Origin: Candidatus Saccharimonadota bacterium
GTDB lineage: Bacteria > Patescibacteriota > Saccharimonadia > Saccharimonadales > Saccharimonadaceae
Assembly (NCBI GenBank): GCA_016700015.1
Contig: CP064995.1
Span: forward strand, 930,001-962,000
Length of the DNA stretch: 32,000 nt
Reading direction: 5' to 3'
The stretch's first letter is position 1. Each line of letters opens with the position of its first letter. The position numbers were made by a program, and so were the translations under genes. Below are positions 1 through 23,993 of this stretch, in pieces. A model generated the notes under the pieces. That model saw only the letters and a list, made by a program, of their open reading frames with translations, was not told where the DNA came from and made no database searches.

Positions 1-2
1 GC

Positions 3-101
3 GAAGCAGAGAAGGAAAAGATACTCGCTGATTTACTGGAGTATTGCGGGTTGGATACGTTGGCGATGGTCGAGATATATCGGAGATTACGTGAACAATG
101 A
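3..101 (+). CDS. 3' end of a CDS entering from upstream (partial); the tail resembles DUF2779-type nuclease-family C-termini
   Basis: Frame 3 is open from the window edge: EAEKEKILADLLEYCGLDTLAMVEIYRRLREQ*. The stop TGA (99-101) overlaps the next ATG (98-100) as ATGA. The family call rests only on my memory of the 'YCxLDTLAMV' tail, and only 32 aa are visible. Confidence 0.35.
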   Translation, partial: EAEKEKILADLLEYCGLDTLAMVEIYRRLREQ

Positions 102-706
102 GAGTAGCATGCCCTAGCTGTGGTTCGACAAACACGTGTCGCATTCAGTATGGCATGCCTGATTTCACCGAGAAGCTTGAGCGAGATGTTGAAGCCGGAA
201 AAGTTCACTTAGGCGGGTGTGTCGTATTAGGAGGTGACCCGAATCGTTACTGTAACAACTGCGAAATAGACTTCGATACCAATGCTACAAGTATTTATCT
301 CGACATCGACGGCGTGCTACTCGCAAATGAAAAAACCGCCGCTAATTATGCCAATGAATTCATTCAGACTGTTTTAGATCGGTATCCGTATACGACTTAC
401 TGGCTCACCACCCACTGCTGGAGGGGCGAGAATAACGCTAAGGAAGTTCTGAGCCCTTATCTGAGACCAGACATACTCCCACTACTCGATAAGATAAAGC
501 CGACCGAGTGGGGAGAAGAAAAGACTGACGCTATAGACTTCAGTAAGCCGTTTAAATGGTTTGATGACGACCTGTACGAAAAGGAGCTAGCGGTGCTTGC
601 GGAAAATAATGCACTTGAGAGCTGGGTAGAGATTGATTTATCTAAGGATCCTGACCAGCTCGCGCAGAGTATCTGTGACCTACAGAACGAGGCGTGGGCA
701 AAATGA
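98..706 (+). CDS. Zn-ribbon plus HAD-superfamily phosphatase-like protein
   Basis: 202 aa. The N-terminus has CPSCG...CNNC (a four-Cys zinc ribbon). It is followed by HAD motif I 'YLDIDGVLL' (DxDGV), 'WLTTHC' (motif II-like Thr) and an acidic 'WFDDD' near the C-terminus. ATGA overlaps occur at both ends (98-101 and 703-706). Confidence 0.6.
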   Translation: MRVACPSCGSTNTCRIQYGMPDFTEKLERDVEAGKVHLGGCVVLGGDPNRYCNNCEIDFDTNATSIYLDIDGVLLANEKTAANYANEFIQTVLDRYPYTTYWLTTHCWRGENNAKEVLSPYLRPDILPLLDKIKPTEWGEEKTDAIDFSKPFKWFDDDLYEKELAVLAENNALESWVEIDLSKDPDQLAQSICDLQNEAWAK

Positions 707-1194
707 AGAAACGAATCACGGATGACTACCTTGCGATTATCGACGGAGAGCCAAGTTTGCGCCAAGACCTATGGTTTTATATTCAGGTAGGTAAGATCGT
801 AGGTCAGGTCAACTCGATCGAGATGTACATAAATGGCGTCATCGCGAGTTACTACAGTAGGCAGGATATTGATTCCCAAGAAAGGTTGAAGAGGGATATC
901 GTCCAACCTATGACGCTTGACACTAAAATAGGTCTCGTGAAAAAGATAGCTATAAATCTCAGGCTTGGATTCTCGCGTCAGAATAAAAGTGATTTGTACA
1001 GATGGAAGGACATCAGGAACGTTGTAGCCCATGGAGTTCCTTTGCATGTATCTAGGCCGGACGACCCGATCGAACTCGTGTTGGTGTATAACAATGACTT
1101 CTATGACGTAGGTGTGCTCACTGAGGAGTTCTACGAAAGGCAGAATAGATTAACGAGCTACCTGACCTCCATCCAGGAGTCTATAGAAGATTAA
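703..1194 (+). CDS. HEPN-like protein (Rx4H motif, MtlR/DUF4145-like layout)
   Basis: The ORF track starts at GTG 694. I prefer ATG 703 because it forms an ATGA overlap with the upstream stop. '...KIGLVKKIAINLRLGF...DLYRWKDIRNVVAHG' contains R-N-V-V-A-H, which is the Rx4-6H HEPN signature, in the helix context typical of MtlR-like HEPN proteins. Confidence 0.55.
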   Translation: MKKRITDDYLAIIDGEPSLRQDLWFYIQVGKIVGQVNSIEMYINGVIASYYSRQDIDSQERLKRDIVQPMTLDTKIGLVKKIAINLRLGFSRQNKSDLYRWKDIRNVVAHGVPLHVSRPDDPIELVLVYNNDFYDVGVLTEEFYERQNRLTSYLTSIQESIED

Positions 1195-1324
1195 TCTTAG
1201 ATAGGCGAAAAGTTCACTTATCGTTTCTGGGGTGGCAAAATGGATCAATGTATGAAATGCCGTGCTCCTTCGTGAATATGTCAGCGATATATCACTATAT
1301 GTTATTGCGCGGAGGTTGAGCACG

Positions 1325-1353
1325 TTGTAATTGATAGCTTACGACTCTATAAT
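1325..1353 (+). promoter_or_regulatory. Sigma70-type promoter abutting ATG 1360 (leaderless)
   Basis: TTGTAA (1325-1330), a 17-nt spacer, then TATAAT (1348-1353). Only 6 nt (gagctt) separate the -10 from ATG 1360, and there is no SD. Confidence 0.55.
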
Positions 1354-1359
1354 GAGCTT

Positions 1360-1809
1360 ATGAGCAAGGGAAGCCCAGAGGATAAACGAAAACACCTGGA
1401 GATGATCCAGGCTGTTATATCGCGTATGGGCTCGAATTCATTTCTATTTAAGGGGTGGTCAATAACCATTATCGCCGCAGTTTCTGCGTTCGCAGGCAAG
1501 GAGAGCGACCACACTTTGATGCTCATTCCTGTCGTTTCAACACTTTTATTTTGGGCTATTGATGCTTATTATCTTATGAATGAAAGGGCATTTCGTAAGT
1601 TATACGAGAAAGTAGCGGCGACCGACCCAAGTGACATAGACTTCGCCATGACTCCCGCAAAAGAATATATCGGTTTCAAAAACTGGCTGAAGACGCTAAA
1701 GACCACGATTCTTAGTCTATTTTACGGTGTCGTGCTCATGTTATTGATATTCTTAATCTTCGCAATAAATAACATAAGCTTGGAGGTGTTGATACACTAT
1801 GGTGCGTAA
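1360..1809 (+). CDS. Small 3-TM membrane protein (candidate effector partner of the TIR-like gene; possibly SLATT-like)
   Basis: 149 aa. It has an N-terminal amphipathic helix (KRKHLEMIQAVISRMGSN) and three hydrophobic spans: ~WSITIIAAVSAFAG, ~LMLIPVVSTLLFWAIDAYYLM and ~ILSLFYGVVLMLLIFLIFAI. It overlaps the downstream TIR-like gene by 11 nt. Confidence 0.6.
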   Translation: MSKGSPEDKRKHLEMIQAVISRMGSNSFLFKGWSITIIAAVSAFAGKESDHTLMLIPVVSTLLFWAIDAYYLMNERAFRKLYEKVAATDPSDIDFAMTPAKEYIGFKNWLKTLKTTILSLFYGVVLMLLIFLIFAINNISLEVLIHYGA

Positions 1810-2290
1810 GGTATTTTTTAGTTTTCACTACAAACCAGATAATTGGCGTGCAGCACAGGTACGCAGTATCGGCGTAGTCGAAGGTAATAACCCTGTTTCT
1901 GATAACGACTGGGAGGACATCGCAGATGGTGGTGACGATGCAATTGAAAAATGGATAAACGACCAGATGTCTGGAAAAAGCTGCGCAGTAGTCTTGGTTG
2001 GGTCAAACACCGCTAATAGAAAATGGATAGACCATGAAATCAAGAAAGCTTGGAATGACGGCAAGGGAGTCGTCGGGGTGTATATCCATAACCTTAAGAA
2101 TAGTGCGGGCGATCAGTCGACAAAAGGCGCAAATCCATTCTCCGGTTTTAATATAGATGGCGTCGCCCTAGACTCGATTGTTAAGGCTTACGATCCGCCC
2201 TATACGACGAGCACTAACGTCTATGACCATATCAAAAACAACATCGAAGATTGGGTTGAAGAGGCGATAGAGATCAGGGGCAGGTACTAG
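1799..2290 (+). CDS. TIR-like domain protein (DUF1863 / ThsB-type)
   Basis: 163 aa. 'KVFFSFHYKPDNWRAAQV...' followed by 'CAVVLVGSNTANRKWIDHEIKKAWNDGKGVVGVYIHNL' matches the remembered PF08937 (MTH538 TIR-like) pattern, including the conserved Glu in 'WIDHEI'. An SD (GGAGGT, 1782-1787) lies inside the upstream gene. Confidence 0.75.
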   Translation: MVRKVFFSFHYKPDNWRAAQVRSIGVVEGNNPVSDNDWEDIADGGDDAIEKWINDQMSGKSCAVVLVGSNTANRKWIDHEIKKAWNDGKGVVGVYIHNLKNSAGDQSTKGANPFSGFNIDGVALDSIVKAYDPPYTTSTNVYDHIKNNIEDWVEEAIEIRGRY

Positions 2291-2765
2291 ACGTTCCAAG
2301 TGCGATTGTCTCGACCTGTAGGTTGGGATTATCTTTCCGTAGTATCATATATGGTCCGCCCGGTATCTTTCGTCCAATAATTTTACCTTCTCGTATCTGT
2401 TTTCGAATCGTGTGTACACTTACACCTAATTTCATTGCGAGGGTGGTGTCTGGTATAGATTTCTTGTGCCGCCAGTCGCCACAAAGCGACCCAGGTATCT
2501 TGCGTTTATTCACTGCATCCTGGCAATTCCTACATTTAAAGCCCCATTTATCAAACCATCCGTCCGTTTTATCCCATACACTCATGCCGCACAGCCCACA
2601 ATCTCGACCTTCACCTGCCATAGCGAATCCATTAGGTTCGTCTTTGAGTCGTGCAAAACGAGCCTTTTCCTTCTGGTCAATTTGTATCAAAATGTCCATA
2701 AAATCAACCAATCTTTGCCGCTCTTCCTCCGTGAATTCGTGCGGTTTTTGTTCCACTTTTGCCAT
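2274..2765 (-). CDS. Zn-finger plus helix-turn-helix DNA-binding protein (excisionase/MerR-like HTH)
   Basis: The start is taken at ATG 2765 (MAKVEQK...), preceded by AAGGAAGG 7 nt upstream; the longer 2918 start in the track has no such support. It has CGLCG...CRNC cysteines and a C-terminal 'LAMKLGVSVHTIRKQIREGKIIGRKIPG' HTH. Its 3' end overlaps the TIR-like gene's 3' end by 17 bp. Confidence 0.6.
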   Translation of the reverse strand: MAKVEQKPHEFTEEERQRLVDFMDILIQIDQKEKARFARLKDEPNGFAMAGEGRDCGLCGMSVWDKTDGWFDKWGFKCRNCQDAVNKRKIPGSLCGDWRHKKSIPDTTLAMKLGVSVHTIRKQIREGKIIGRKIPGGPYMILRKDNPNLQVETIALGTSSTCP

Positions 2766-2927
2766 ATTACTACCTTCCTTTTTCGCCTTATGAGACACTT
2801 TTGATTCTATACTTTTTGTGTCCCATTTGTAGCGTACAACCCCCGTAAACGAGTTCGCGACAGGTATGGGGAGCCAGGCATAAGCACTTTGCGCGAGCAA
2901 GGTGTTTTTGTTTTGCAAGGGATGCCC

Positions 2928-2933
2928 TATACT
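2928..2933 (+). promoter_or_regulatory. -10 box abutting ATG 2941 (leaderless)
   Basis: TATACT, then 7 nt (tccttat), then ATG 2941. No SD. Confidence 0.4.
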
Positions 2934-2940
2934 TCCTTAT

Positions 2941-3480
2941 ATGATTGAAGCGCGCGCATTTAAGATAGATATTGACTCTATAAGGTCCTTCCTCATCCAT
3001 GACGGTGCCGTGCTAAAAGGAAAGTATGAAATCATTGATACGATATATGCCAAAAAAGATGCGTCGGTCAGTCTCGGCGATGAATTTCTTCGACTTCGAG
3101 TAATGCCAAAAAATATTTGGGATGAGAAAGACGTGATAGTGTCAATTAAGCAAACGACACCGCGTAATATTGGTAAGGTGTCTGCGATTCCCGCCAGAGT
3201 GGAATTTGATAGCGAGGAAGATGCGGTAAAGTATGTTAATGATATCCATCTTAGCGAATATCAAAAGGACTTCACTTTCTCACGGGTGGGGTGGCAGTAT
3301 CTTCTGTCAAAAGGTGATGTTGTTGATCTTGAGATTATCGCGCCAGACTATACGAGCGTGGAGATAAAGTCCGATACGGATGATGGTATAGCAAAACTTG
3401 CAAAACAACTTGGAATCGATAGCGCATCATTTATAAGGGGGCCATCGGTTGTCGAAATAAAGAAGCTTTTGTTTTCTTGA
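2941..3480 (+). CDS. CYTH-like protein (class IV adenylate cyclase / triphosphate tunnel family), divergent N-terminal motif
   Basis: The start is taken at ATG 2941 (MIEARAFKIDID...). The layout follows CyaB/CYTH proteins: MIE-x-R-x-FK, DTIY, LRLRV, VEFDSEEDA, VDLEI, VEIKSD, then a C-terminal 'LAKQLGI...S..EIKKLL'. The canonical ExExK motif reads EARAFK here. Confidence 0.5.
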   Translation: MIEARAFKIDIDSIRSFLIHDGAVLKGKYEIIDTIYAKKDASVSLGDEFLRLRVMPKNIWDEKDVIVSIKQTTPRNIGKVSAIPARVEFDSEEDAVKYVNDIHLSEYQKDFTFSRVGWQYLLSKGDVVDLEIIAPDYTSVEIKSDTDDGIAKLAKQLGIDSASFIRGPSVVEIKKLLFS

Positions 3481-3506
3481 TTGTTGCAAGCTGCATCTGC
3501 TAGTGG

Positions 3507-3622
3507 GAGCCAAAAATAATAATCACTGAAGAGGTGATTTTTATTTTTGGCCAAATTTTTGATGAGTATCTATTTGAATTATGCAACTTATTTAATCCGT
3601 TCAGGGACTATCCTTTCAAGTT
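3507..3622 (+). repeat. Copy 1 of a ~116-bp direct repeat flanking the GNAT gene
   Basis: It aligns by eye with 4593-4709. Shared blocks are gagccaaaa-taa-aatca, ggtgatttttattttt, tctatttgaattatgcaacttattt and actatcctttcaagtt. The centre has diverged. Confidence 0.8.
3510..3550 (+). terminator. AT-rich hairpin inside repeat copy 1, candidate terminator of the CYTH-like gene
   Basis: ccaaaaataataatcac (3510-3526), loop tgaagag, then gtgatttttatttttgg (3534-3550). This is a 17-bp stem with one mismatch and a T-rich 3' arm. Confidence 0.5.
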
Positions 3623-3965
3623 CCCGAACGCTTCGTAGCATGTTCAGGACTTCAAGCTATACGAAAACAAGGTGTTTTGTCGTAGGATACTTCGAAAACT
3701 AGGACTTGAGCCGGTATTTCTACATGCAGACATTAGTAAAATTTTCAGTTAATTAGTGGCGATGCAAGGAAATTATCTGTGGAATGAATCACATACTCCA
3801 CTGGGTATGATAAGACAGCCATGCTTGCAGGTCACCTACGTGATGGATACCATTGATTTATATGAGTGAGAATTTAGTAACACGTGAGGTGGTTAGTCAG
3901 CGACGCGCAGCGGAGCTCGAAATCATCGCGGCAGCTTATTAGTGAGGGTCGCTTAACGGTACCTG

Positions 3966-4448
3966 CTATGCGCGTGGCGGTTCGTTGCTATTGATTAGCT
4001 TGATATATTCAGTGCAGTAGGGAGCGAAACCATATTTTTCATGGATTGACGCGGAAGGCCTGTTATTACTATAGATATTGGCTTTAACACGATCGACCTT
4101 CATGATGTCGCTTGCCCACGCTACAGCCTCTCGCATGAGAGTAGCACCAATACCCTGATTTCGAAACTTTGGGTCAACATATAAAGCCTCAAGTGTGCAT
4201 TCACGGTTGTGCGATGATAGATAATCTAAAACTGTAACAAAACTGTACTGGTATCCTACAATTTCTTTGTCTACAACCGCAATGATAACGCGGGCATCTG
4301 GGTTAGAGAGTTCGTTTGCATAGTGCCTATATGATTTATCATAATTAAAAATGAGTTCTGGTTCGTATGCTTTTGATTCATTTTGCAGCATCTCGCCCAT
4401 CTCAATAATAGTGGGTAGGTGGCTCGGGGTTGCTTCGATAATATCCAT
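3966..4448 (-). CDS. GNAT family N-acetyltransferase
   Basis: Motif A 'LYVDPKFRNQGIGATLMREAVAWA' and a C-terminal 'IHEKYGF'. I prefer ATG 4448 (MDIIEATP...) to the TTG at 4469 used by the track. Confidence 0.85.
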   Translation of the reverse strand: MDIIEATPSHLPTIIEMGEMLQNESKAYEPELIFNYDKSYRHYANELSNPDARVIIAVVDKEIVGYQYSFVTVLDYLSSHNRECTLEALYVDPKFRNQGIGATLMREAVAWASDIMKVDRVKANIYSNNRPSASIHEKYGFAPYCTEYIKLINSNEPPRA

Positions 4449-4454
4449 GGTAGT

Positions 4455-4460
4455 AATATA
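4455..4460 (-). promoter_or_regulatory. -10 box abutting the GNAT ATG (leaderless)
   Basis: On the minus strand: TATATT, then 6 nt (actacc), then ATG 4448. Confidence 0.35.
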
Positions 4461-4592
4461 GTAGCCCAATAAGCGTACTAGCTCAATAAATTATTATGAA
4501 CGATGATATTAAAATATAGACACAAAATGAGTTGTTGTGAGATCTAGTTCAACTGGCAATTGAGAATTTTTCTGAAGCTCGTCTAATAACGT

Positions 4593-4709
4593 GAGCCAAA
4601 ATAAGAATCATCGAATAGGTGATTTTTATTTTTGTCTAACCTCTCGTGCGAGTGTCTATTTGAATTATGCAAACTTATTTCATCTAGTATGAAACTATCC
4701 TTTCAAGTT
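4593..4709 (+). repeat. Copy 2 of the ~116-bp direct repeat
   Basis: See copy 1. It contains the equivalent imperfect hairpin (ccaaaataagaatcatc ... ggtgatttttatttttg) and the TATCCTTTCAAGT block. Confidence 0.8.
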
Positions 4710-4854
4710 TCTATCTAGATCTTTTCCGCACTATCTGTGTCGGCTTCTATAATCACTTCGTTTTGCCTATCACTTTTGTAGCGCCCTCTCGTCCAGTAGT
4801 GAATATCATCAAGGAGAGGAAATATTCTTTCAAGTACGGCCATACTATCCAAAA

Positions 4855-4863
4855 TGTTACAAT
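4855..4863 (+). promoter_or_regulatory. Extended -10 promoter abutting ATG 4870 (leaderless)
   Basis: TGtTACAAT, then 6 nt (acgact), then ATG. Confidence 0.5.
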
Positions 4864-4869
4864 ACGACT

Positions 4870-5621
4870 ATGCAAAAGATACTTATCACTGGGGGGTCGG
4901 GCGGGATTGGTTACGCGTTAGCGCGGGTCGCTGCAGCGCATGGTCATGACATCGTCCTCGCGGCACGGAATGTCGAGCATCTCGCGCTCGCTCAGCAAAC
5001 ACTGCAAAAAGACCACAAGATAAGTGTTGACATTAAACAAGCGGATTTATCAAAACCGGGCGCAGCACGAAAACTTTACGACGAGCTAAAGAGTGACGGT
5101 ATCGAGATACTCGTCAACAATGCCGGCTTTGGATTGGTCGGTGATTTTTTCAAAGAAGACATCGCCGATAACATAGACATGGTGCAACTAAACGCCCAGG
5201 CATTAATGGAACTGACGCACTATTTTGGTAATGATTTCATAAAGAAAAAGCGAGGGAAGATCCTGAATGTTGCGTCAGTCGCAGCATTTGTGCCCGGCCC
5301 GAAACAACCGGTGTACTATGCGACAAAGGCTTTTGTGAGAAGCTTCTCGCGAGCACTTGCTCTATGGCACCTCACGGCGTGACGGTGACAAACCTCAACC
5401 CCGGTGCGACAAAGACGAACTTTTTTGTGCGGGCAAAGGTGGGCACAAAAGAACGTGGCGTCTCCGCTGATGCGGTCGCTGAGGCGGCGTATGCAGCGAT
5501 GATGAGCGGAAAGTCAGAGATCACCTATGGATTCACAAACAAGATCCTTACTAACTTCCTCGTGAGGATTGCACCCTACCGCGTGCAAGCAGCACTAATC
5601 GACAAGAACTCTGAAGTATAG
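4870..5621 (+). pseudogene. Short-chain dehydrogenase/reductase (SDR) interrupted by a frameshift
   Basis: ORF 4870-5382 carries TGGSGGIG, NNAG and YYATK. ORF 5364-5621, in another frame, continues with APHGVTVTNLNPGATKTNF, the expected SDR continuation. The frames switch at ~5361-5366 ('gct cta tg gca'), where the usual 'EL' of 'ALALELAPHG' is missing. Confidence 0.75.
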
Positions 5622-5649
5622 TTGAAGTTGACCAATGAGATAGGGGTTC

Positions 5650-5658
5650 TGCTACTAT
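5650..5658 (+). promoter_or_regulatory. Extended -10 promoter abutting ATG 5665 (leaderless)
   Basis: TGcTACTAT, then 6 nt (atagcc), then ATG. Confidence 0.5.
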
Positions 5659-5664
5659 ATAGCC

Positions 5665-6177
5665 ATGCCCTCAACACTCATTATCATTCGCGGAAATTCG
5701 GGGAGCGGGAAGACGACTGTCGCCAAAGAACTGCGCAGTAGAATTGGTGACGGTTTGAGCGACAACACCCTGCTTGTCCAGCAAGATGTGCTGCGACGTG
5801 ACATGCTGCGAGAGCGCGATATGCTAGAGAAACGCTCGGTGATTGAGCTAATCGAATTGGTGGTAGAGTTCGGCCGTAGACAAGGGAGAACTGTGATACT
5901 CGAAGGGATACTTGCTACAAAAAAGTATGGTCCAATGCTTCAACAATTAGCCAGTCAGTTTGATGAAGCACATGTGTACTACCTCGACATACCGTTTGAT
6001 GAAACGCTGCGAAGGCACGCCACTAAACCAAATGCCCACGAATTTGGAGAAAAAGAAATGCGCGAATGGTGGAACGAGAAGGACTACCTACACATAGATG
6101 GCGAGAAGCTACTCGATAAATCTAAGAGTGTCGAAGATATCACTACTCAAATTATCGCTGATGTTGGTAATGCGTAG
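5665..6177 (+). CDS. P-loop kinase-like protein (AAA_33-type)
   Basis: Walker A 'GNSGSGKTTVAKEL' at the N-terminus. It is 170 aa, the size and layout of small nucleotide/antibiotic-kinase-like P-loop proteins. Confidence 0.7.
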   Translation: MPSTLIIIRGNSGSGKTTVAKELRSRIGDGLSDNTLLVQQDVLRRDMLRERDMLEKRSVIELIELVVEFGRRQGRTVILEGILATKKYGPMLQQLASQFDEAHVYYLDIPFDETLRRHATKPNAHEFGEKEMREWWNEKDYLHIDGEKLLDKSKSVEDITTQIIADVGNA

Positions 6178-6239
6178 CGGCTGCAGGGCGAGTTAGTGCA
6201 CCACATGGGATCGGGCAGGTATAAGCGCCAAATTGTTTA

Positions 6240-6248
6240 TGCTATGAT
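6240..6248 (+). promoter_or_regulatory. Extended -10 promoter abutting ATG 6255 (leaderless)
   Basis: TGcTATGAT, then 6 nt (gaagct), then ATG. Confidence 0.5.
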
Positions 6249-6254
6249 GAAGCT

Positions 6255-7025
6255 ATGACGAATATCACACACGCAGCAAAACAATCACTTCGAAAACTCA
6301 ATATCGCCGCCGCGGTGTTTCACCTAGCGCTAGCACTATTTGTGCTGTACTGCTCGAACTCGTTTTCACTGCCGGTGACAGCGACGTACCTGGCGGGCCC
6401 TCCTGGCTCAATGTATACAGACCCAGTCACGTTGTTTGATGTGCGAGTGGGTTACGCCGTAGCGCTGTTTTTGGGGCTGTCGGCATTTTTCCACGTACTG
6501 GTGGCATCGAAGGCGTTCTTCGGGCGCTATATTACCGGTCTTAGCAACACAATCAATGTGTTTCGTTGGGTTGAGTACTCGATCAGCTCGACACTGATGA
6601 TTTTGCTTATCGCGCAGATTACGGGGATTAGTGATTATGGCGCGCTTCTCGGCATAGCTGGGGTAAATGTATCGATGATCTTGTTCGGCTGGCTGCAAGA
6701 AAAGTATACGCGTCCAGGCTCACGTGAATGGCTGCCCTTTATATTTGGTTGTATTGCAGGAATCGTGCCGTGGCTTATCGTGCTTATTTCGGTACTATCA
6801 CCCAACTCGCCGTCTGACGCTACACCGCCAGCGTTTGTCTACGGTATTATTGTGTCGATATTCCTTCTGTTTAATTCATTCGCACTGGTTCAGTACAAGC
6901 AGTACCGAGCACTCGGAAAGTGGAAAGACTATTTGCGCGGTGAGCGTGCGTATATCGTACTAAGCTTCACTGCCAAAGCAGCACTGGCGATTCAGATCTT
7001 TGCCAACACGCTAATCCCGAACTAA
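6255..7025 (+). CDS. Heliorhodopsin
   Basis: 256 aa, 7 TM. Long blocks match what I remember of heliorhodopsin 48C12: NVFRWVEYSISS (E107), ILFGWLQEKYT, LPFIFGCIAGIVPW, FVYGIIVSIFLLFNSFALVQYKQY and YLRGERAYIVLSFTAKAALAIQIF (K241, codon 6975-6977). Confidence 0.93.
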   Translation: MTNITHAAKQSLRKLNIAAAVFHLALALFVLYCSNSFSLPVTATYLAGPPGSMYTDPVTLFDVRVGYAVALFLGLSAFFHVLVASKAFFGRYITGLSNTINVFRWVEYSISSTLMILLIAQITGISDYGALLGIAGVNVSMILFGWLQEKYTRPGSREWLPFIFGCIAGIVPWLIVLISVLSPNSPSDATPPAFVYGIIVSIFLLFNSFALVQYKQYRALGKWKDYLRGERAYIVLSFTAKAALAIQIFANTLIPN

Positions 7026-7066
7026 TAGTCTGGCAAGTTGTTGACATAGCATATTTTTCGATTGTC

Positions 7067-7075
7067 TGATATACT
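7067..7075 (+). promoter_or_regulatory. Extended -10 promoter giving a ~120-nt 5' UTR for the RRM gene
   Basis: TGaTATACT (7067-7075). A TTGACA at 7041-7046 is 23 nt upstream, so not at canonical spacing. An SD (gaaagg) lies before ATG 7202. Confidence 0.4.
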
Positions 7076-7201
7076 AGTGATAGCAAGTTATTCTACTCCT
7101 TAACCAAGCGTACAAGTGTGGCACCAAACTCATTTTATTCTCGGCTACTGCACTAGACCCTATCTCGCACAATATTAGCTGATAGAAAGGTTCATGTACC
7201 C

Positions 7202-7507
7202 ATGGCAACAAAATTATATGTAGGAAAATTGTCCTTCAATACCACAAATGATAGCTTGAACGCGCTGTTTGCGCAGTTCGGCACCGTAGTCAGTGCCGAA
7301 GTCGCTACCGACCGAGAAACTGGTCGCTCGCGCGGCTTTGGATTTGTCGAAATGGAAAACGACGCTGATGCACAAAAAGCGATTGAGACACTTGATGGTA
7401 AAGACTTTGAGGAGCGTACCATTGTGGTGAATATCGCTAAACCGCGCGAGGATCGTCCACGCCCACAGGGTGGCGGAGATTATCGTGGTGGCTTTGGTCG
7501 TCGCTAA
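7202..7507 (+). CDS. RRM-type RNA-binding protein with Gly/Arg-rich tail
   Basis: RNP-2 'LYVGKL', RNP-1 'RGFGFVEM', and a C-terminal 'GGGDYRGGFGRR'. Confidence 0.92.
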   Translation: MATKLYVGKLSFNTTNDSLNALFAQFGTVVSAEVATDRETGRSRGFGFVEMENDADAQKAIETLDGKDFEERTIVVNIAKPREDRPRPQGGGDYRGGFGRR

Positions 7508-7528
7508 TACCCAGGAGTATCAATACTC

Positions 7529-8026
7529 ATGTCACTCTATGTAGGTAGCTCAAAAAACGGGCATCGTGTTGAAGTTGACCTGGCAAGCTCGTACGCCGCC
7601 GAGGCAATCTCGCGGCACCCGCACCTGGTTACACTGGCTGGTGAGGCACTCCGAACCATCACACTAAACGGTGAGCGCGTCGTAGTGACACATGATATGC
7701 AGCACACTATCGGCTATGATTTCGTGATTGAAGCTGTCAACAGGGATAGTGTGTTTTATGCACAGCTAGCGAAGGAGACGGTGTATGTTCCCTTCACGAA
7801 AATCGATAAACCAATACCCACACAGTTGATAACGATGGTGTTTGTTCGTAGCCAACTCGACAAATGCTACTACGCAGACGATATTTACATGGGCACACCG
7901 AAGCCCGCGCTACCAGGCAGCCTTAACGAATCGTCTAAGAGTAAGCCCTATTGGCACAAGCACGCCTATATTTATGGTAATCAGCTCATAAAAGCGAGCA
8001 CGATTACGCGGACATCTCCGTACTAA
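7529..8026 (+). CDS. Hypothetical protein
   Basis: 165-aa ORF with an SD (AGGAG) upstream, 21 nt after the RRM gene. I recognise no motif. Confidence 0.5.
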   Translation: MSLYVGSSKNGHRVEVDLASSYAAEAISRHPHLVTLAGEALRTITLNGERVVVTHDMQHTIGYDFVIEAVNRDSVFYAQLAKETVYVPFTKIDKPIPTQLITMVFVRSQLDKCYYADDIYMGTPKPALPGSLNESSKSKPYWHKHAYIYGNQLIKASTITRTSPY

Positions 8027-9165: not shown

Positions 9166-9780
9166 ATGAGAGGCAAATTAAATATTACCAGTGTAGTCTT
9201 AGCTGTGCTTGTAGCAACTCTGGCGGTTATTGGCGCTTCATTTCCGGCTAGCGCTGCCGTAAAAGCACCCGCTAAACCTTCACTAACCGCAAGCTCCGTG
9301 TCAATTCTGCAGGGAGAGAGCGTGACCCTGAGCTGGTCGAGCCAGCGCGCATCATACTGTACACTCTTTCCAACTGGAAAAACGATTATGGGCTCGTCTG
9401 CGAGCTATACAATCAATAACCTAGTTGGCACAACTGGCTTTTATGTGACTTGTGTAAATAGTTCTGGAAGGGCGACTTCTAATGTCGTGACAGTATCGGT
9501 GGCGTCTTCAAATACACCCATGATTACCGCGTTCGTTGCGAGCCCAAGCTCCATCCTCTACGGAGAGTCAACCACACTTAATTGGTCCACGGTCAATGTT
9601 GTTGACGGGGACTGCTCGCTGAGCTCGCATGGGGTTTCGGGCCTTCCGGCGTCGGGTAGTTACACAACTGGACCACTTAAAGAAACGCAAACGTATACAC
9701 TAACATGTACTAATGGTTCGGGCACGTCTAGCCAGACCATTACTGTTTTCGTAGTTGATGTGATCGCACTAGGTTTCTAG
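9166..9780 (+). CDS. Secreted protein with two tandem Ig-like/Cys-pair repeats
   Basis: The start is taken at ATG 9166, 13 nt after AGGAGG at 9147-9152. Signal peptide ...ASFPASA/AV. The two repeats are 'SILQGESVTLSWSS...YCTL...YVTCVNSSG' and 'SILYGESTTLNWST...DCSL...TLTCTNGSG'. Confidence 0.7.
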   Translation: MRGKLNITSVVLAVLVATLAVIGASFPASAAVKAPAKPSLTASSVSILQGESVTLSWSSQRASYCTLFPTGKTIMGSSASYTINNLVGTTGFYVTCVNSSGRATSNVVTVSVASSNTPMITAFVASPSSILYGESTTLNWSTVNVVDGDCSLSSHGVSGLPASGSYTTGPLKETQTYTLTCTNGSGTSSQTITVFVVDVIALGF

Positions 9781-9812
9781 TATCACAAAATACCTCGCCC
9801 TGAAATTTGGCG

Positions 9813-15521: not shown

Positions 15522-16676
15522 ATGATACATATACCGGCGCCAGCACACAATTCGAAACTGACTAAGCTCGTTGTCGAACTGAGTAGTCTCAAAGATCATG
15601 CAGTAAGCGGCACTACTCCTGTGTGGATATTTTTCGAGTTAAAAAATTTGTTTCATATCGTCGAGGCACTTTCTTCTGCGCGCATAGAGGGTAACCATAC
15701 GACACTTGCCACATTTGTCGAGAAAAAACTTGACAAGTCTGATACAAAAAACGAAAAGCTGATCGAGATATCTAATCTTATTGAGGCGCTCAGTTATATA
15801 GATGGCTCAATCAATGAGGCAGTGATAGATAAGGATTACGTGTTTGCACTACATCGCATAGTTGTACGCAATCTGAGCGTAGGAACAGGCTGCGAGGGCG
15901 ATAAACGGCCCGGTGCCTATCGGCGTGAAAATAGAGCTATTGCAAAGTCAAGCCTAGTGCTGCCACAACACTATGATGTCCCAGATCTGATGACAGAATT
16001 CTATGACTTTTTGCAACGCCCGGAGTTGCCCCAGGACGATTTGTTGAAAATTGCCATCGCGCATCACAGATTTGTACAGATTCATCCGTTCGGCAATGGT
16101 AATGGTAGGGTTGTGCGACTACTGACGTACGCCATGCTGTGCAAGAAAGGATATATAATCCCTGGTTCTGCCCGCTTATTTAATCCAACAGCAGTTTTTG
16201 CTGGAGATCGAGACAGGTATTATGAAAAGTTGAGCCAGGCAGACAAGGGGGATGACGCAAGCCTGGCAGCATGGTGTGAGTATGTCCTCGACGGGCTAAA
16301 AACCGAGGTTGAAAAATCTCAAAAGTTTGCAGATCACAAGTTTGTACAAGATAACATACTGCTGCCTGCCTTCAGCTGGGCATTAGAAAAAAATGTTTTT
16401 AGCGAGTTGGAATATAAAATTCTTGTACGCCTCGCGAGGAAATCCAGCATAAAAGCTGGCGATATTCGTGATCTGTGGCCGGCAGACTATTCTCACGTTG
16501 TTGTATCGAAACAACTACGCAAGTTGAGGCGGCAGGGGTTTATTACAACGCTTAAGCCCAAGGGGAGATCTTATGTTCTGAAGCTAACAGGCAACAAGGC
16601 AACCAGAGGGATATTAGACCAAATGGACGCCCAAGGTTTACTGCCGATTCGCGTAGACGATGTTGAGCATGTATAG
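15522..16676 (+). CDS. Fic family protein (class II-like, with N-terminal inhibitory motif and a C-terminal wHTH-like region)
   Basis: The Fic motif is 'HPFGNGNGRVVR', i.e. HxFx(D/E)GNGRxxR with Asn at the acidic position. 'SSARIEGN' matches the (S/T)xxxE(G/N) inhibitory helix. Confidence 0.88.
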   Translation: MIHIPAPAHNSKLTKLVVELSSLKDHAVSGTTPVWIFFELKNLFHIVEALSSARIEGNHTTLATFVEKKLDKSDTKNEKLIEISNLIEALSYIDGSINEAVIDKDYVFALHRIVVRNLSVGTGCEGDKRPGAYRRENRAIAKSSLVLPQHYDVPDLMTEFYDFLQRPELPQDDLLKIAIAHHRFVQIHPFGNGNGRVVRLLTYAMLCKKGYIIPGSARLFNPTAVFAGDRDRYYEKLSQADKGDDASLAAWCEYVLDGLKTEVEKSQKFADHKFVQDNILLPAFSWALEKNVFSELEYKILVRLARKSSIKAGDIRDLWPADYSHVVVSKQLRKLRRQGFITTLKPKGRSYVLKLTGNKATRGILDQMDAQGLLPIRVDDVEHV

Positions 16677-23020: not shown

Positions 23021-23302
23021 TTATCTACGAATATAGCCGTGTGCTGGTTTTGTGCGGTGCGGACACCCCGACCAGCAGCATGGGCGACGCTCGCCACGCG
23101 AGAGCTTGTCGATAGCAACATGTATGCGCCTAGTGCGGGTTTCGGGTTTTTTGGCTGATGTGATCCAGCAAATAAATTCGCTTCGGGCTAGAGGCGTGAT
23201 ATCGTTCCATGCATGGTGGAAACGCGCATCTGTGGTGAGCATGGCACGTAAGTCTTGGGGGATTCTGTGAATAGAACCTTGAGCGAGTGATCTGTCCTGC
23301 AT
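23021..23302 (-). CDS. YdeI/OmpD-associated (OmdA) family protein
   Basis: 'IPQDLRAML...AWNDITPLARSEFICWITSAKKPETRTRRI' is the remembered YdeI/OmdA pattern. Confidence 0.7.
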   Translation of the reverse strand: MQDRSLAQGSIHRIPQDLRAMLTTDARFHHAWNDITPLARSEFICWITSAKKPETRTRRIHVAIDKLSRGERRPCCWSGCPHRTKPAHGYIRR

Positions 23303-23309
23303 GGTACCG

Positions 23310-23315
23310 ATTTTA
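23310..23315 (-). promoter_or_regulatory. -10 box close to ATG 23302 (leaderless)
   Basis: On the minus strand: TAAAAT, then 7 nt (cggtacc), then ATG. Confidence 0.35.
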
Positions 23316-23369
23316 ACTCAAAGAATGCGTTATGAGAATGCGGCAGTGGTAATCGGGCAGGGTGGCACG

Positions 23370-23375
23370 TATACT
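23370..23375 (+). promoter_or_regulatory. -10 box abutting ATG 23382 (leaderless)
   Basis: TATACT, then 6 nt (attggt), then ATG. Confidence 0.4.
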
Positions 23376-23381
23376 ATTGGT

Positions 23382-23993
23382 ATGAGCGAGATTATATATG
23401 TGTTAACGAACGAAGCGATGCCAGGCTATGTAAAAATTGGCAAAACCACGACCAGCCTTGAGCAACGTATTCGCGAACTGAGCGCTTCGACCAGTGTACC
23501 GATGCCATTTACTGCTTATTATGCTTGTACCGTACATGATGCTGGATTTGTCGAGCACCAGCTTCATGACGCATTTGGCGATAACCGCACGAACCCACGA
23601 CGGGAATTTTTTGCGATCGATCCTGAACGCGTGGTGGCGGCGCTCAAGCTGGCGCAAATAGAAGACATCACACCGCGGCATGATATCGTCGACTCGCAGG
23701 AGGATCAACGGGCCCTGAATGAAGCCAGGCAAAAACGCAGCCGATTTAACTTCGATATGGTCAGTATTCCGCTTGGTGCCGAGCTACAGTTTAGTCGCGA
23801 TGAATCGGTCACGGCGCGCGTAATTGGTCGCACCGGGTCAGAAAGTATCGAATTTCGCGGTGCCCCTACTAGCCTTTCGGCTGCAGCTCAAGAAGTGCTG
23901 GGATACCAAAATGTGGTGTCAGGTACTGACTACTGGATGTACAAGGGCGAGACGCTTGATGAGCGCCGCCGCCGGATGGAAGAAGCCGAGTGA
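23382..23993 (+). CDS. GIY-YIG-like nuclease family protein (T5orf172/MUG113-type) with a C-terminal extension
   Basis: The start is taken at ATG 23382. 'IYVLTNEAMPGYVKIGKTT.SLEQRIRELS.STSVPMPF...REFF' is the T5orf172/MUG113 pattern. Confidence 0.75.
   Translation: MSEIIYVLTNEAMPGYVKIGKTTTSLEQRIRELSASTSVPMPFTAYYACTVHDAGFVEHQLHDAFGDNRTNPRREFFAIDPERVVAALKLAQIEDITPRHDIVDSQEDQRALNEARQKRSRFNFDMVSIPLGAELQFSRDESVTARVIGRTGSESIEFRGAPTSLSAAAQEVLGYQNVVSGTDYWMYKGETLDERRRRMEEAE

Follow-up and report, generated by a model that had tools for sequence, protein, structure and literature searches.

The question raised by this locus is whether a short two-gene cassette encoding a small membrane protein and a TIR-domain protein represents an undescribed anti-phage system or a further member of a known one. 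The cassette was found in a genome of Candidatus Saccharibacteria, a lineage known for episymbionts with small genomes, and occupies positions 1325 to 2290 of the window, i.e. the whole 32000-nucleotide (nt) stretch of DNA that was analysed (GenBank contig CP064995.1; positions 930001 to 962000 of the forward strand). Both encoded proteins are present verbatim in NCBI (accession numbers QQS21849.1, 'hypothetical protein', and QQS21850.1, 'TIR domain-containing protein'), where they are assigned to a Candidatus Saccharibacteria metagenome-assembled genome with a contig of 1.01 Mb. The initial annotation had described a Thoeris-like pair, made up of a ThsB-type TIR protein with an intact Glu and a bare three-transmembrane (three-TM) protein lacking any SLOG, Macro or SIR2 domain, and this description was borne out. 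The further proposal that the system was undescribed was not, as the cassette matches both the PDC-M50A/B models of PADLOC and the recently reported type V Thoeris (10.64898/2025.12.03.692087). Judged from the encoded proteins, the cassette is very probably an anti-phage system of the type V Thoeris kind, comprising the two genes thsF and thsB and carried by a Candidatus Saccharibacteria genome. It is thus, on the same matches, not a new kind of system, and what appears to be new is the occurrence of a type V Thoeris member in Saccharibacteria. The features of the cassette are as follows.

Positions 1325..1353, + strand: promoter-like site TTGTAA-17-TATAAT, read from the sequence.
Positions 1360..1809, + strand: thsF (open reading frame (ORF) A), 149 amino acids (aa), putative type V Thoeris effector of the PADLOC PDC-M50A family with three TM segments.
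Positions 1782..1788, + strand: Shine-Dalgarno-like GGAGGTG for thsB, inside the 3' end of thsF.
Positions 1799..2290, + strand: thsB (ORF B), 163 aa, TIR-domain (DUF1863/ThsB-type) putative signal synthase.
Positions 2308..2329, + strand: weak terminator-like hairpin, from a consensus scan only.

Type V Thoeris was defined by Yirmiya et al. (10.64898/2025.12.03.692087, bioRxiv, 3 Dec 2025) as a ThsB protein together with a three-TM effector that was annotated as DUF2270 and renamed ThsF. Phage defence was reported for the type V systems of Bacillus thuringiensis DAR 81934 and Bacillus sp. 1NLA3E, and a Vibrio homolog gave none in E. coli (10.64898/2025.12.03.692087). The sequence listed in Table S1 of that study for the B. 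thuringiensis DAR 81934 TIR protein gives 251 of 252 residues, and the protein was recovered by homology search, the validated ThsB matching a protein (P0243) with 100% identity. The gene directly 3' of that for P0243 encodes a 141-aa protein (locus L084; coordinates 3773-4198), which is the B. thuringiensis ThsF. The 149-aa protein from the window shares 40% identity with this ThsF over 136 residues (E 5e-38), and alignment of the B. thuringiensis protein with the profile of the window family using hhalign gave a probability of 100%. As this full-length match is to the gene adjoining a validated ThsB gene, the 149-aa protein can be taken as a ThsF homolog, and it is probably the ortholog of B. 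thuringiensis ThsF.

The same proteins connect type V Thoeris to an entry that has been catalogued in PADLOC since PADLOC-DB v2.0.0 (2023), namely PDC-M50 (PDC-M50A and PDC-M50B), a computational candidate that carries no attached description. The hidden Markov models for both PDC-M50 components were found to match the adjacent window genes end to end, PDC-M50A matching ThsF (7.9e-43; residues 8-135 on profile positions 4-131 of 134) and PDC-M50B matching ThsB (7.2e-63; residues 1-160 on 1-159 of 162). The B. thuringiensis ThsF also matches PDC-M50A (1.8e-48). As the validated ThsF and the window protein match a common PDC-M50A model, PDC-M50 and type V Thoeris are one system. No mention of PDC-M50 was found in the literature searched, and the same search revealed nothing relevant for 8xMP, a Pfam family considered below.

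The window cassette resembles the type V system of B. thuringiensis DAR 81934 in having a homologous effector of similar size (149 aa, versus 141 aa in B. thuringiensis) with the same three-TM layout and the PDC-M50A model in common, and in being a two-gene operon in which the TIR partner bears the catalytic Glu. However, the B. thuringiensis ThsB, at 252 aa, is extended at its N terminus and belongs to TIR cluster 2734579397, whereas the window ThsB is a 163-aa DUF1863/ThsB1-like protein. The two genes in the window also overlap by 11 nt (1799-1809), and they are carried by a Saccharibacterium.

The product of thsF includes three hydrophobic segments (at about residues 28-46, 52-70 and 117-136). 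An AlphaFold2 model of the monomer was all-helical (helices 6-48, 51-87, 106-113 and 116-136), with a predicted local distance difference test (pLDDT) score of 88 and a predicted template modelling (pTM) score of 0.76. Both the three-TM topology and this confident model agree with ThsF as described by Yirmiya et al. (10.64898/2025.12.03.692087). In an alignment of 51 ThsF-family sequences, the residues H12, Q17, R22, K31, W33, F64, W65, D68, E75, Y82 and W109 were found to be invariant, and the window ThsF carries all of H12, Q17, R22, K31, W33, D68, E75, Y82 and W109.

Searches of Pfam, NCBIfam and PDB recognised no soluble domain in the window ThsF, and it had no significant match in Pfam or NCBIfam. 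The Pfam matches that fell below threshold were to 8xMP (PF24838; E 1e-3, full length), DUF3278 (PF11683; 1e-3) and DUF2270 (PF10028; 0.049). When 24 members of the ThsF family were scanned, matches to DUF3278 (13), DUF2270 (6) and 8xMP (3) were recorded, none of which reaches the gathering score. No relative of the window ThsF was detected in PDB by sequence searches with either the single protein or the family profile, and a Foldseek search of PDB with the AlphaFold2 model returned nothing at E<=0.001, indicating that no ThsF homolog has been solved. A profile search showed that the family includes more than 4000 clusters at 90% identity, and the best 120 of these are without a precomputed Pfam domain and are essentially all unannotated. 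Pfam and NCBIfam thus have in effect no model for ThsF, and the only library model, among those tried, that recognises the family is PADLOC PDC-M50A.

The second gene product is more readily recognised. The window ThsB matches the Pfam family ThsB_TIR (PF08937; 5.7e-28) and the PADLOC model ThsB1 (1.1e-74), as well as PDC-M50B. It is related to the Bacillus cereus ThsB structures 6lhy and 9b7d (E 2e-17), and more closely to PDB entry 8wcf (E 1.3e-43), a full-length homolog of 160 aa deposited as 'Molecular chaperone Tir'. Nothing relevant citing 8WCF was found in the literature searched, though this structure could serve as a template for the clade that includes the window ThsB. Glu80 of the window ThsB, in the motif WIDHEI, aligns with the position of Glu85 in the ThsB of B. 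cereus MSX-D12 and is conserved in 73/73 aligned sequences. Comparison with the TIR proteins in Table S1 placed the window ThsB closest to cluster 2661146773, with 60% identity to TIR 2640566838, which is labelled 'DUF2270 - Type V', and TIR proteins with this label are 40-60% identical to the window ThsB.

The genetic context of ThsF homologs was surveyed in 80 loci from GTDB species representatives, covering Saccharibacteria, other Patescibacteria, Bacteroidota, Verrucomicrobiota, Actinomycetota, Pseudomonadota, Bacillota and others. A TIR gene was located within 300 nt of the gene for the ThsF homolog in 71/80 loci, and the pairing of the two proteins is thus conserved well beyond the window. 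In 53 of the 80 loci, a TIR gene of the type seen in the window lies directly 3' of the ThsF homolog on the same strand. Many of the loci include two or three TIR genes around the ThsF homolog, often with the ThsF gene between two TIR genes. The TIR proteins found beside ThsF homologs resemble six of the Table S1 TIR clusters, all of which hold rows labelled 'DUF2270 - Type V', with up to 82% identity.

Of the nine exceptions, three have a TIR gene at a distance of about 650-850 nt, and in three an adjacent gene was found by Pfam scan to encode a different TIR-family domain (SEFIR/TIR_2, WD40-Roc-TIR_2 or CAP12/PCTIR TIR). The adjacent gene in L057, scanned likewise, encodes a protein with a TIR-like N-terminal motif. 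In a further locus (L074) the contig ends before any downstream gene could be read, and in another (L041) the neighbour is ParA-like/GH25. The large or atypical TIR proteins encoded beside ThsF homologs are listed here.

L033, coordinates 1529-3088: SEFIR/TIR_2 protein with a long C-terminal region.
L057, coordinates 4236-7355: TIR-like N-terminal motif fused to nSTAND1-WD40.
L060, coordinates 937-3972: WD40-Roc-TIR_2 protein.
L072, coordinates 4488-5495: CAP12/PCTIR-type TIR protein.

These neighbours suggest that ThsF can be wired to TIR sensors resembling nucleotide-binding leucine-rich repeat (NLR) proteins. On plasmids, the number of ThsF homologs closely follows that of TIR proteins of the B. 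thuringiensis type in Klebsiella (42 vs 43) and Escherichia (36 vs 36). The nearest relative of the B. thuringiensis TIR to be carried by a plasmid is in B. cereus, where its context is that of type I, and no ThsF was found on that plasmid.

Close relatives of the window cassette, with 82-85% protein identity, retain the overlapping gene pair in flanks that differ. In locus L086, the flanks (coordinates 1493-4231, 6715-7557 and 9198-9806) include MmeI-family restriction-modification, DUF3800, S24 peptidase and Mrr genes, which is a defence-island context. In locus L088 (coordinates 1-3694), the flanking genes encode an HSP70-like protein, a 612-aa protein with no assigned family and an AAA ATPase, and these three genes may themselves form a defence module. 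As the relatives keep the pair in different flanks, the cassette is a mobile two-gene unit, and the genes that neighbour it in the window lie outside the system.

Other types of Thoeris were also compared with the cassette. The ThsB of type I (ThsA with SIR2-SLOG, and ThsB, in B. cereus MSX-D12) is homologous to that in the window, with about 34% identity and the catalytic Glu aligned. However, the type I effector is an NADase whereas that in the window is a membrane protein, and no SIR2 or SLOG match, as needed for type I, was found in the 25 window ORFs scanned. In types II (2TM-Macro) and VII (SLATT), as proposed here for the window, a nucleotide made by the TIR protein activates an effector that disrupts the membrane, but ThsF does not have a separate soluble sensor domain. 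Type II membership was rejected, as there is no Macro match and the 149-aa protein is without a soluble domain. SLATT effectors constitute the separate type VII (10.64898/2025.12.03.692087), and an effector with a SLATT domain, of the kind found in type VII Thoeris or in cyclic oligonucleotide-based anti-phage signalling systems (CBASS), was likewise rejected. No SLATT or Macro family in Pfam was matched at E<=1 by the window protein or by 23 relatives, and the earlier suggestion of a SLATT-like membrane protein was abandoned for this reason. The ThsB proteins of type XI (ThsB with a HIT hydrolase) fall in the same Table S1 cluster as the window ThsB (2661146773) and are 35-38% identical to it, but no HIT hydrolase, the effector of type XI, is encoded in the window cassette.

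The published work on type V provides a basis for predicting how the window system would act. The ThsB proteins of both validated type V systems make 3' cyclic ADP-ribose (3'cADPR) upon infection (10.64898/2025.12.03.692087). In the case of B. thuringiensis, 3'cADPR added to cells carrying the system is toxic, and the Tad1 sponge substantially lowers defence (10.64898/2025.12.03.692087). ThsF was predicted using AlphaFold3 to form a heptameric ring with basic pockets at the subunit interfaces (10.64898/2025.12.03.692087). By analogy with the published system, the window ThsB would sense phage infection and convert NAD+ to a cyclic ADP-ribose isomer, and ThsF would form a ring-shaped homo-oligomer in the membrane. 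Pockets may be formed by the basic and aromatic N-terminal helix (K9, K11, H12, R22, K31 and W33) together with the cytoplasmic linker between TM2 and TM3 (E75, R76, R79, Y82 and W109). The signal would bind in these positively charged interface pockets and open or distort the ThsF assembly, and the resulting breach of the membrane would lead to death or arrest of the cell before the phage cycle is completed, i.e. abortive infection. The window ThsF has conserved K, R and H residues on the segments predicted to be cytoplasmic, which is consistent with a ring with charged pockets.

Several observations weigh against assigning the cassette to type V with this mechanism. The window ThsF falls short of PF10028 (DUF2270), the label used by Yirmiya et al., with 13.7 bits vs a cut-off of 25. 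However, the validated B. thuringiensis ThsF also has no PF10028 match in the current Pfam, its single match being to 8xMP (E 0.012), and as both proteins are below threshold the DUF2270 label was rejected as a criterion for membership. The gene order is thsF-thsB in the window but thsB-thsF in B. thuringiensis. Cells carrying the Bacillus sp. 1NLA3E type V system were not made sick by added 3'cADPR, no toxicity being seen (10.64898/2025.12.03.692087), and 3'cADPR is therefore only a probable ligand of ThsF even within the family. The window ThsB belongs to TIR cluster 2661146773, a clade distinct from those of the ThsF-paired TIR proteins assayed so far, and the only members of this cluster to have been assayed, which are type XI ThsB proteins 35-38% identical to that in the window, made no known TIR signal (10.64898/2025.12.03.692087). 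Finally, the ring-shaped oligomer and its pockets are AlphaFold3 predictions only (10.64898/2025.12.03.692087).

The behaviour of the 1NLA3E system and of the assayed cluster 2661146773 proteins also favours a different possibility, in which the architecture is that of type V but the chemistry is not. The signal made by the window ThsB would then differ from 3'cADPR, being a different cADPR isomer or a novel derivative of ADP-ribose (ADPR), and the ThsF subclade would be tuned accordingly. That the nearest relatives of the window ThsB (60% identity) are in cluster 2661146773 is consistent with this, as is the finding that ThsF homologs partner at least six TIR clusters in addition to large TIR fusion proteins. 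However, the two type V ThsB proteins that were assayed come from unrelated TIR clusters and both gave 3'cADPR (10.64898/2025.12.03.692087), and the window ThsB is itself related to the 3'cADPR-making B. cereus ThsB (2e-17). In addition, the invariant residues are nearly all kept in the B. thuringiensis ThsF, the exception being Y in place of H at position 12, which points to a common class of ligand. A change of signal in the window system is thus possible but is the less likely outcome. Similarly, it can be proposed only tentatively that the signal of the subclade combining ThsF with a cluster 2661146773 ThsB is not 3'cADPR and is possibly the molecule used in type XI Thoeris.

An alternative raised in the initial annotation was that the TIR protein acts directly, as an NADase effector that depletes NAD+, with the membrane protein in a sensing, anchoring or regulatory role. 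For TIR proteins in unverified configurations, Yirmiya et al. allow that an effector role of this kind is possible (10.64898/2025.12.03.692087), and the 149-aa protein has no recognisable ligand-binding domain of a known kind. However, the published toxicity of 3'cADPR and the effect of Tad1 place ThsF of the homologous B. thuringiensis system downstream of a diffusible signal (10.64898/2025.12.03.692087). Furthermore, many unrelated TIR clades serve interchangeably as partners of ThsF, and this is the pattern of a shared effector and not that of a dedicated sensor. Direct NADase action is therefore considered very unlikely.

A role outside defence is also considered very unlikely, be it in lysis (as a holin-like cassette), in addiction (as a toxin-antitoxin-like module) or against the host bacterium of the Saccharibacterium. 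In favour of such a role, ThsF is small and has three TM segments, a weak match to a three-TM holin family was seen for one family member (E 0.032), and the lineage is Saccharibacteria. However, the family occurs across free-living phyla, on conjugative plasmids and in defence-island contexts, and its members confer phage resistance experimentally (10.64898/2025.12.03.692087). Pfam scans also found no phage structural or lysis genes adjoining the cassette in the window.

The type V Thoeris assignment leaves the expression of the two genes to be considered. The promoter-like hexamers TTGTAA (1325-1330) and TATAAT (1348-1353) are separated by a 17-nt spacer, and TATAAT is followed by GAGCTT (6 nt) and then by the ATG at 1360. 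When the region 600-3600 was scanned for promoter-like sites, this site scored best, with 10/12 positions. However, the number of sites in the region, 4 observed vs 6.2 expected from shuffled sequence, is not above the shuffle mean, and the match alone is therefore weak evidence. The layout TTGNAA-17-TAnAnT-6-ATG was found in register in three orthologous cassettes (L086, L087 and L088) in which the other flanking DNA has diverged. As the register from promoter to ATG has been kept although the flanks have drifted, a leaderless thsF transcript is supported. The ATG at 1360 is the earliest possible start codon 3' of the upstream stop codon, and a start at the next ATG of thsF would lose the invariant block K9-E14. 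It is thus plausible that the thsF mRNA is leaderless or near-leaderless, with a predicted leaderless start at A1360.

The Shine-Dalgarno-like GGAGGTG (1782-1788) is located 10 nt 5' of the thsB ATG at 1799. The genes thsF and thsB are probably transcribed from the 1325-1353 promoter as a leaderless bicistronic mRNA, and translation of the two genes is probably coupled via the overlap. The terminator-like hairpin (2308..2329) begins 18 nt past the thsB stop codon and has a poor T tract, and the 3' end of thsB is overlapped by a convergent gene (2274-2918, - strand). The promoter, ORF coordinates, three TM segments, 11-nt overlap, internal Shine-Dalgarno sequence and catalytic Glu recorded in the initial annotation were all present in the sequence.

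Two overlapping ORFs lie directly 5' of the cassette.

Positions 98-706, + strand: zinc (Zn)-ribbon protein with weak HAD-like similarity (HAD_SAK_2, E 0.018).
Positions 694-1194, + strand: 166-aa protein with an RNVVAH (Rx4H, HEPN-like) motif.

For both, searches of Pfam, PADLOC, NCBIfam and PDB gave no significant match, and relatives of the cassette do not have them beside it. The same databases gave no significant match for an ORF at 2902-3480 that had been called CYTH-like, which is also not conserved with the cassette. The HEPN-like and CYTH-like ORFs were therefore rejected as parts of the system. For the convergent gene at 2274-2918 (- strand), only a weak match to the helix-turn-helix (HTH) family HTH_17 was found. 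The cassette had been placed in a low-GC island with HEPN-like, CYTH-like and HTH genes. A mild dip in G+C content is indeed present (41-46% over positions 1-5000 vs 47-54% in most of the remaining window), but the HEPN and CYTH labels were not confirmed and the HTH label is reduced to the weak HTH_17 match. Nor do the neighbouring genes provide a context for the system, since relatives carry the two-gene cassette in quite different flanks.

Further along the window, a short-chain dehydrogenase gene appears to be split into two overlapping ORFs at positions 4870-5382 and 5364-5621 (+ strand). The first encodes a 170-aa adh_short N-terminal portion (E 2.4e-34) and the second, in a different frame, encodes 85 aa, which probably reflects a frameshift, a pseudogene or a fault in assembly. 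A full-length heliorhodopsin gene is located at 6255-7025 (+ strand; PF18761, E 9.9e-90, residues 12-253 on profile positions 1-242 of 242). An RRM-type RNA-binding protein is encoded at 7202-7507 (+ strand), as judged from the translation only. A Fic/DOC-domain protein (15522-16676, + strand; E 4.6e-17) and a T5orf172/MUG113 (GIY-YIG-like) protein (23301-23993, + strand; E 1.2e-16) are also encoded in the window.

With PDC-M50 now linked to type V Thoeris, names can be given to thousands of such loci. In addition, the ThsB/ThsF pair of the window is compact, and its TIR clade is of interest for its signal. If that signal were not 3'cADPR, ThsF would be a minimal membrane receptor family with varying specificity among ADPR-derived signals, and the locus would also show that abortive-infection TIR signalling operates in the ultra-small episymbiotic Saccharibacteria. 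As a probable type V system, the locus adds Thoeris to the sparse known defence repertoire of this lineage.

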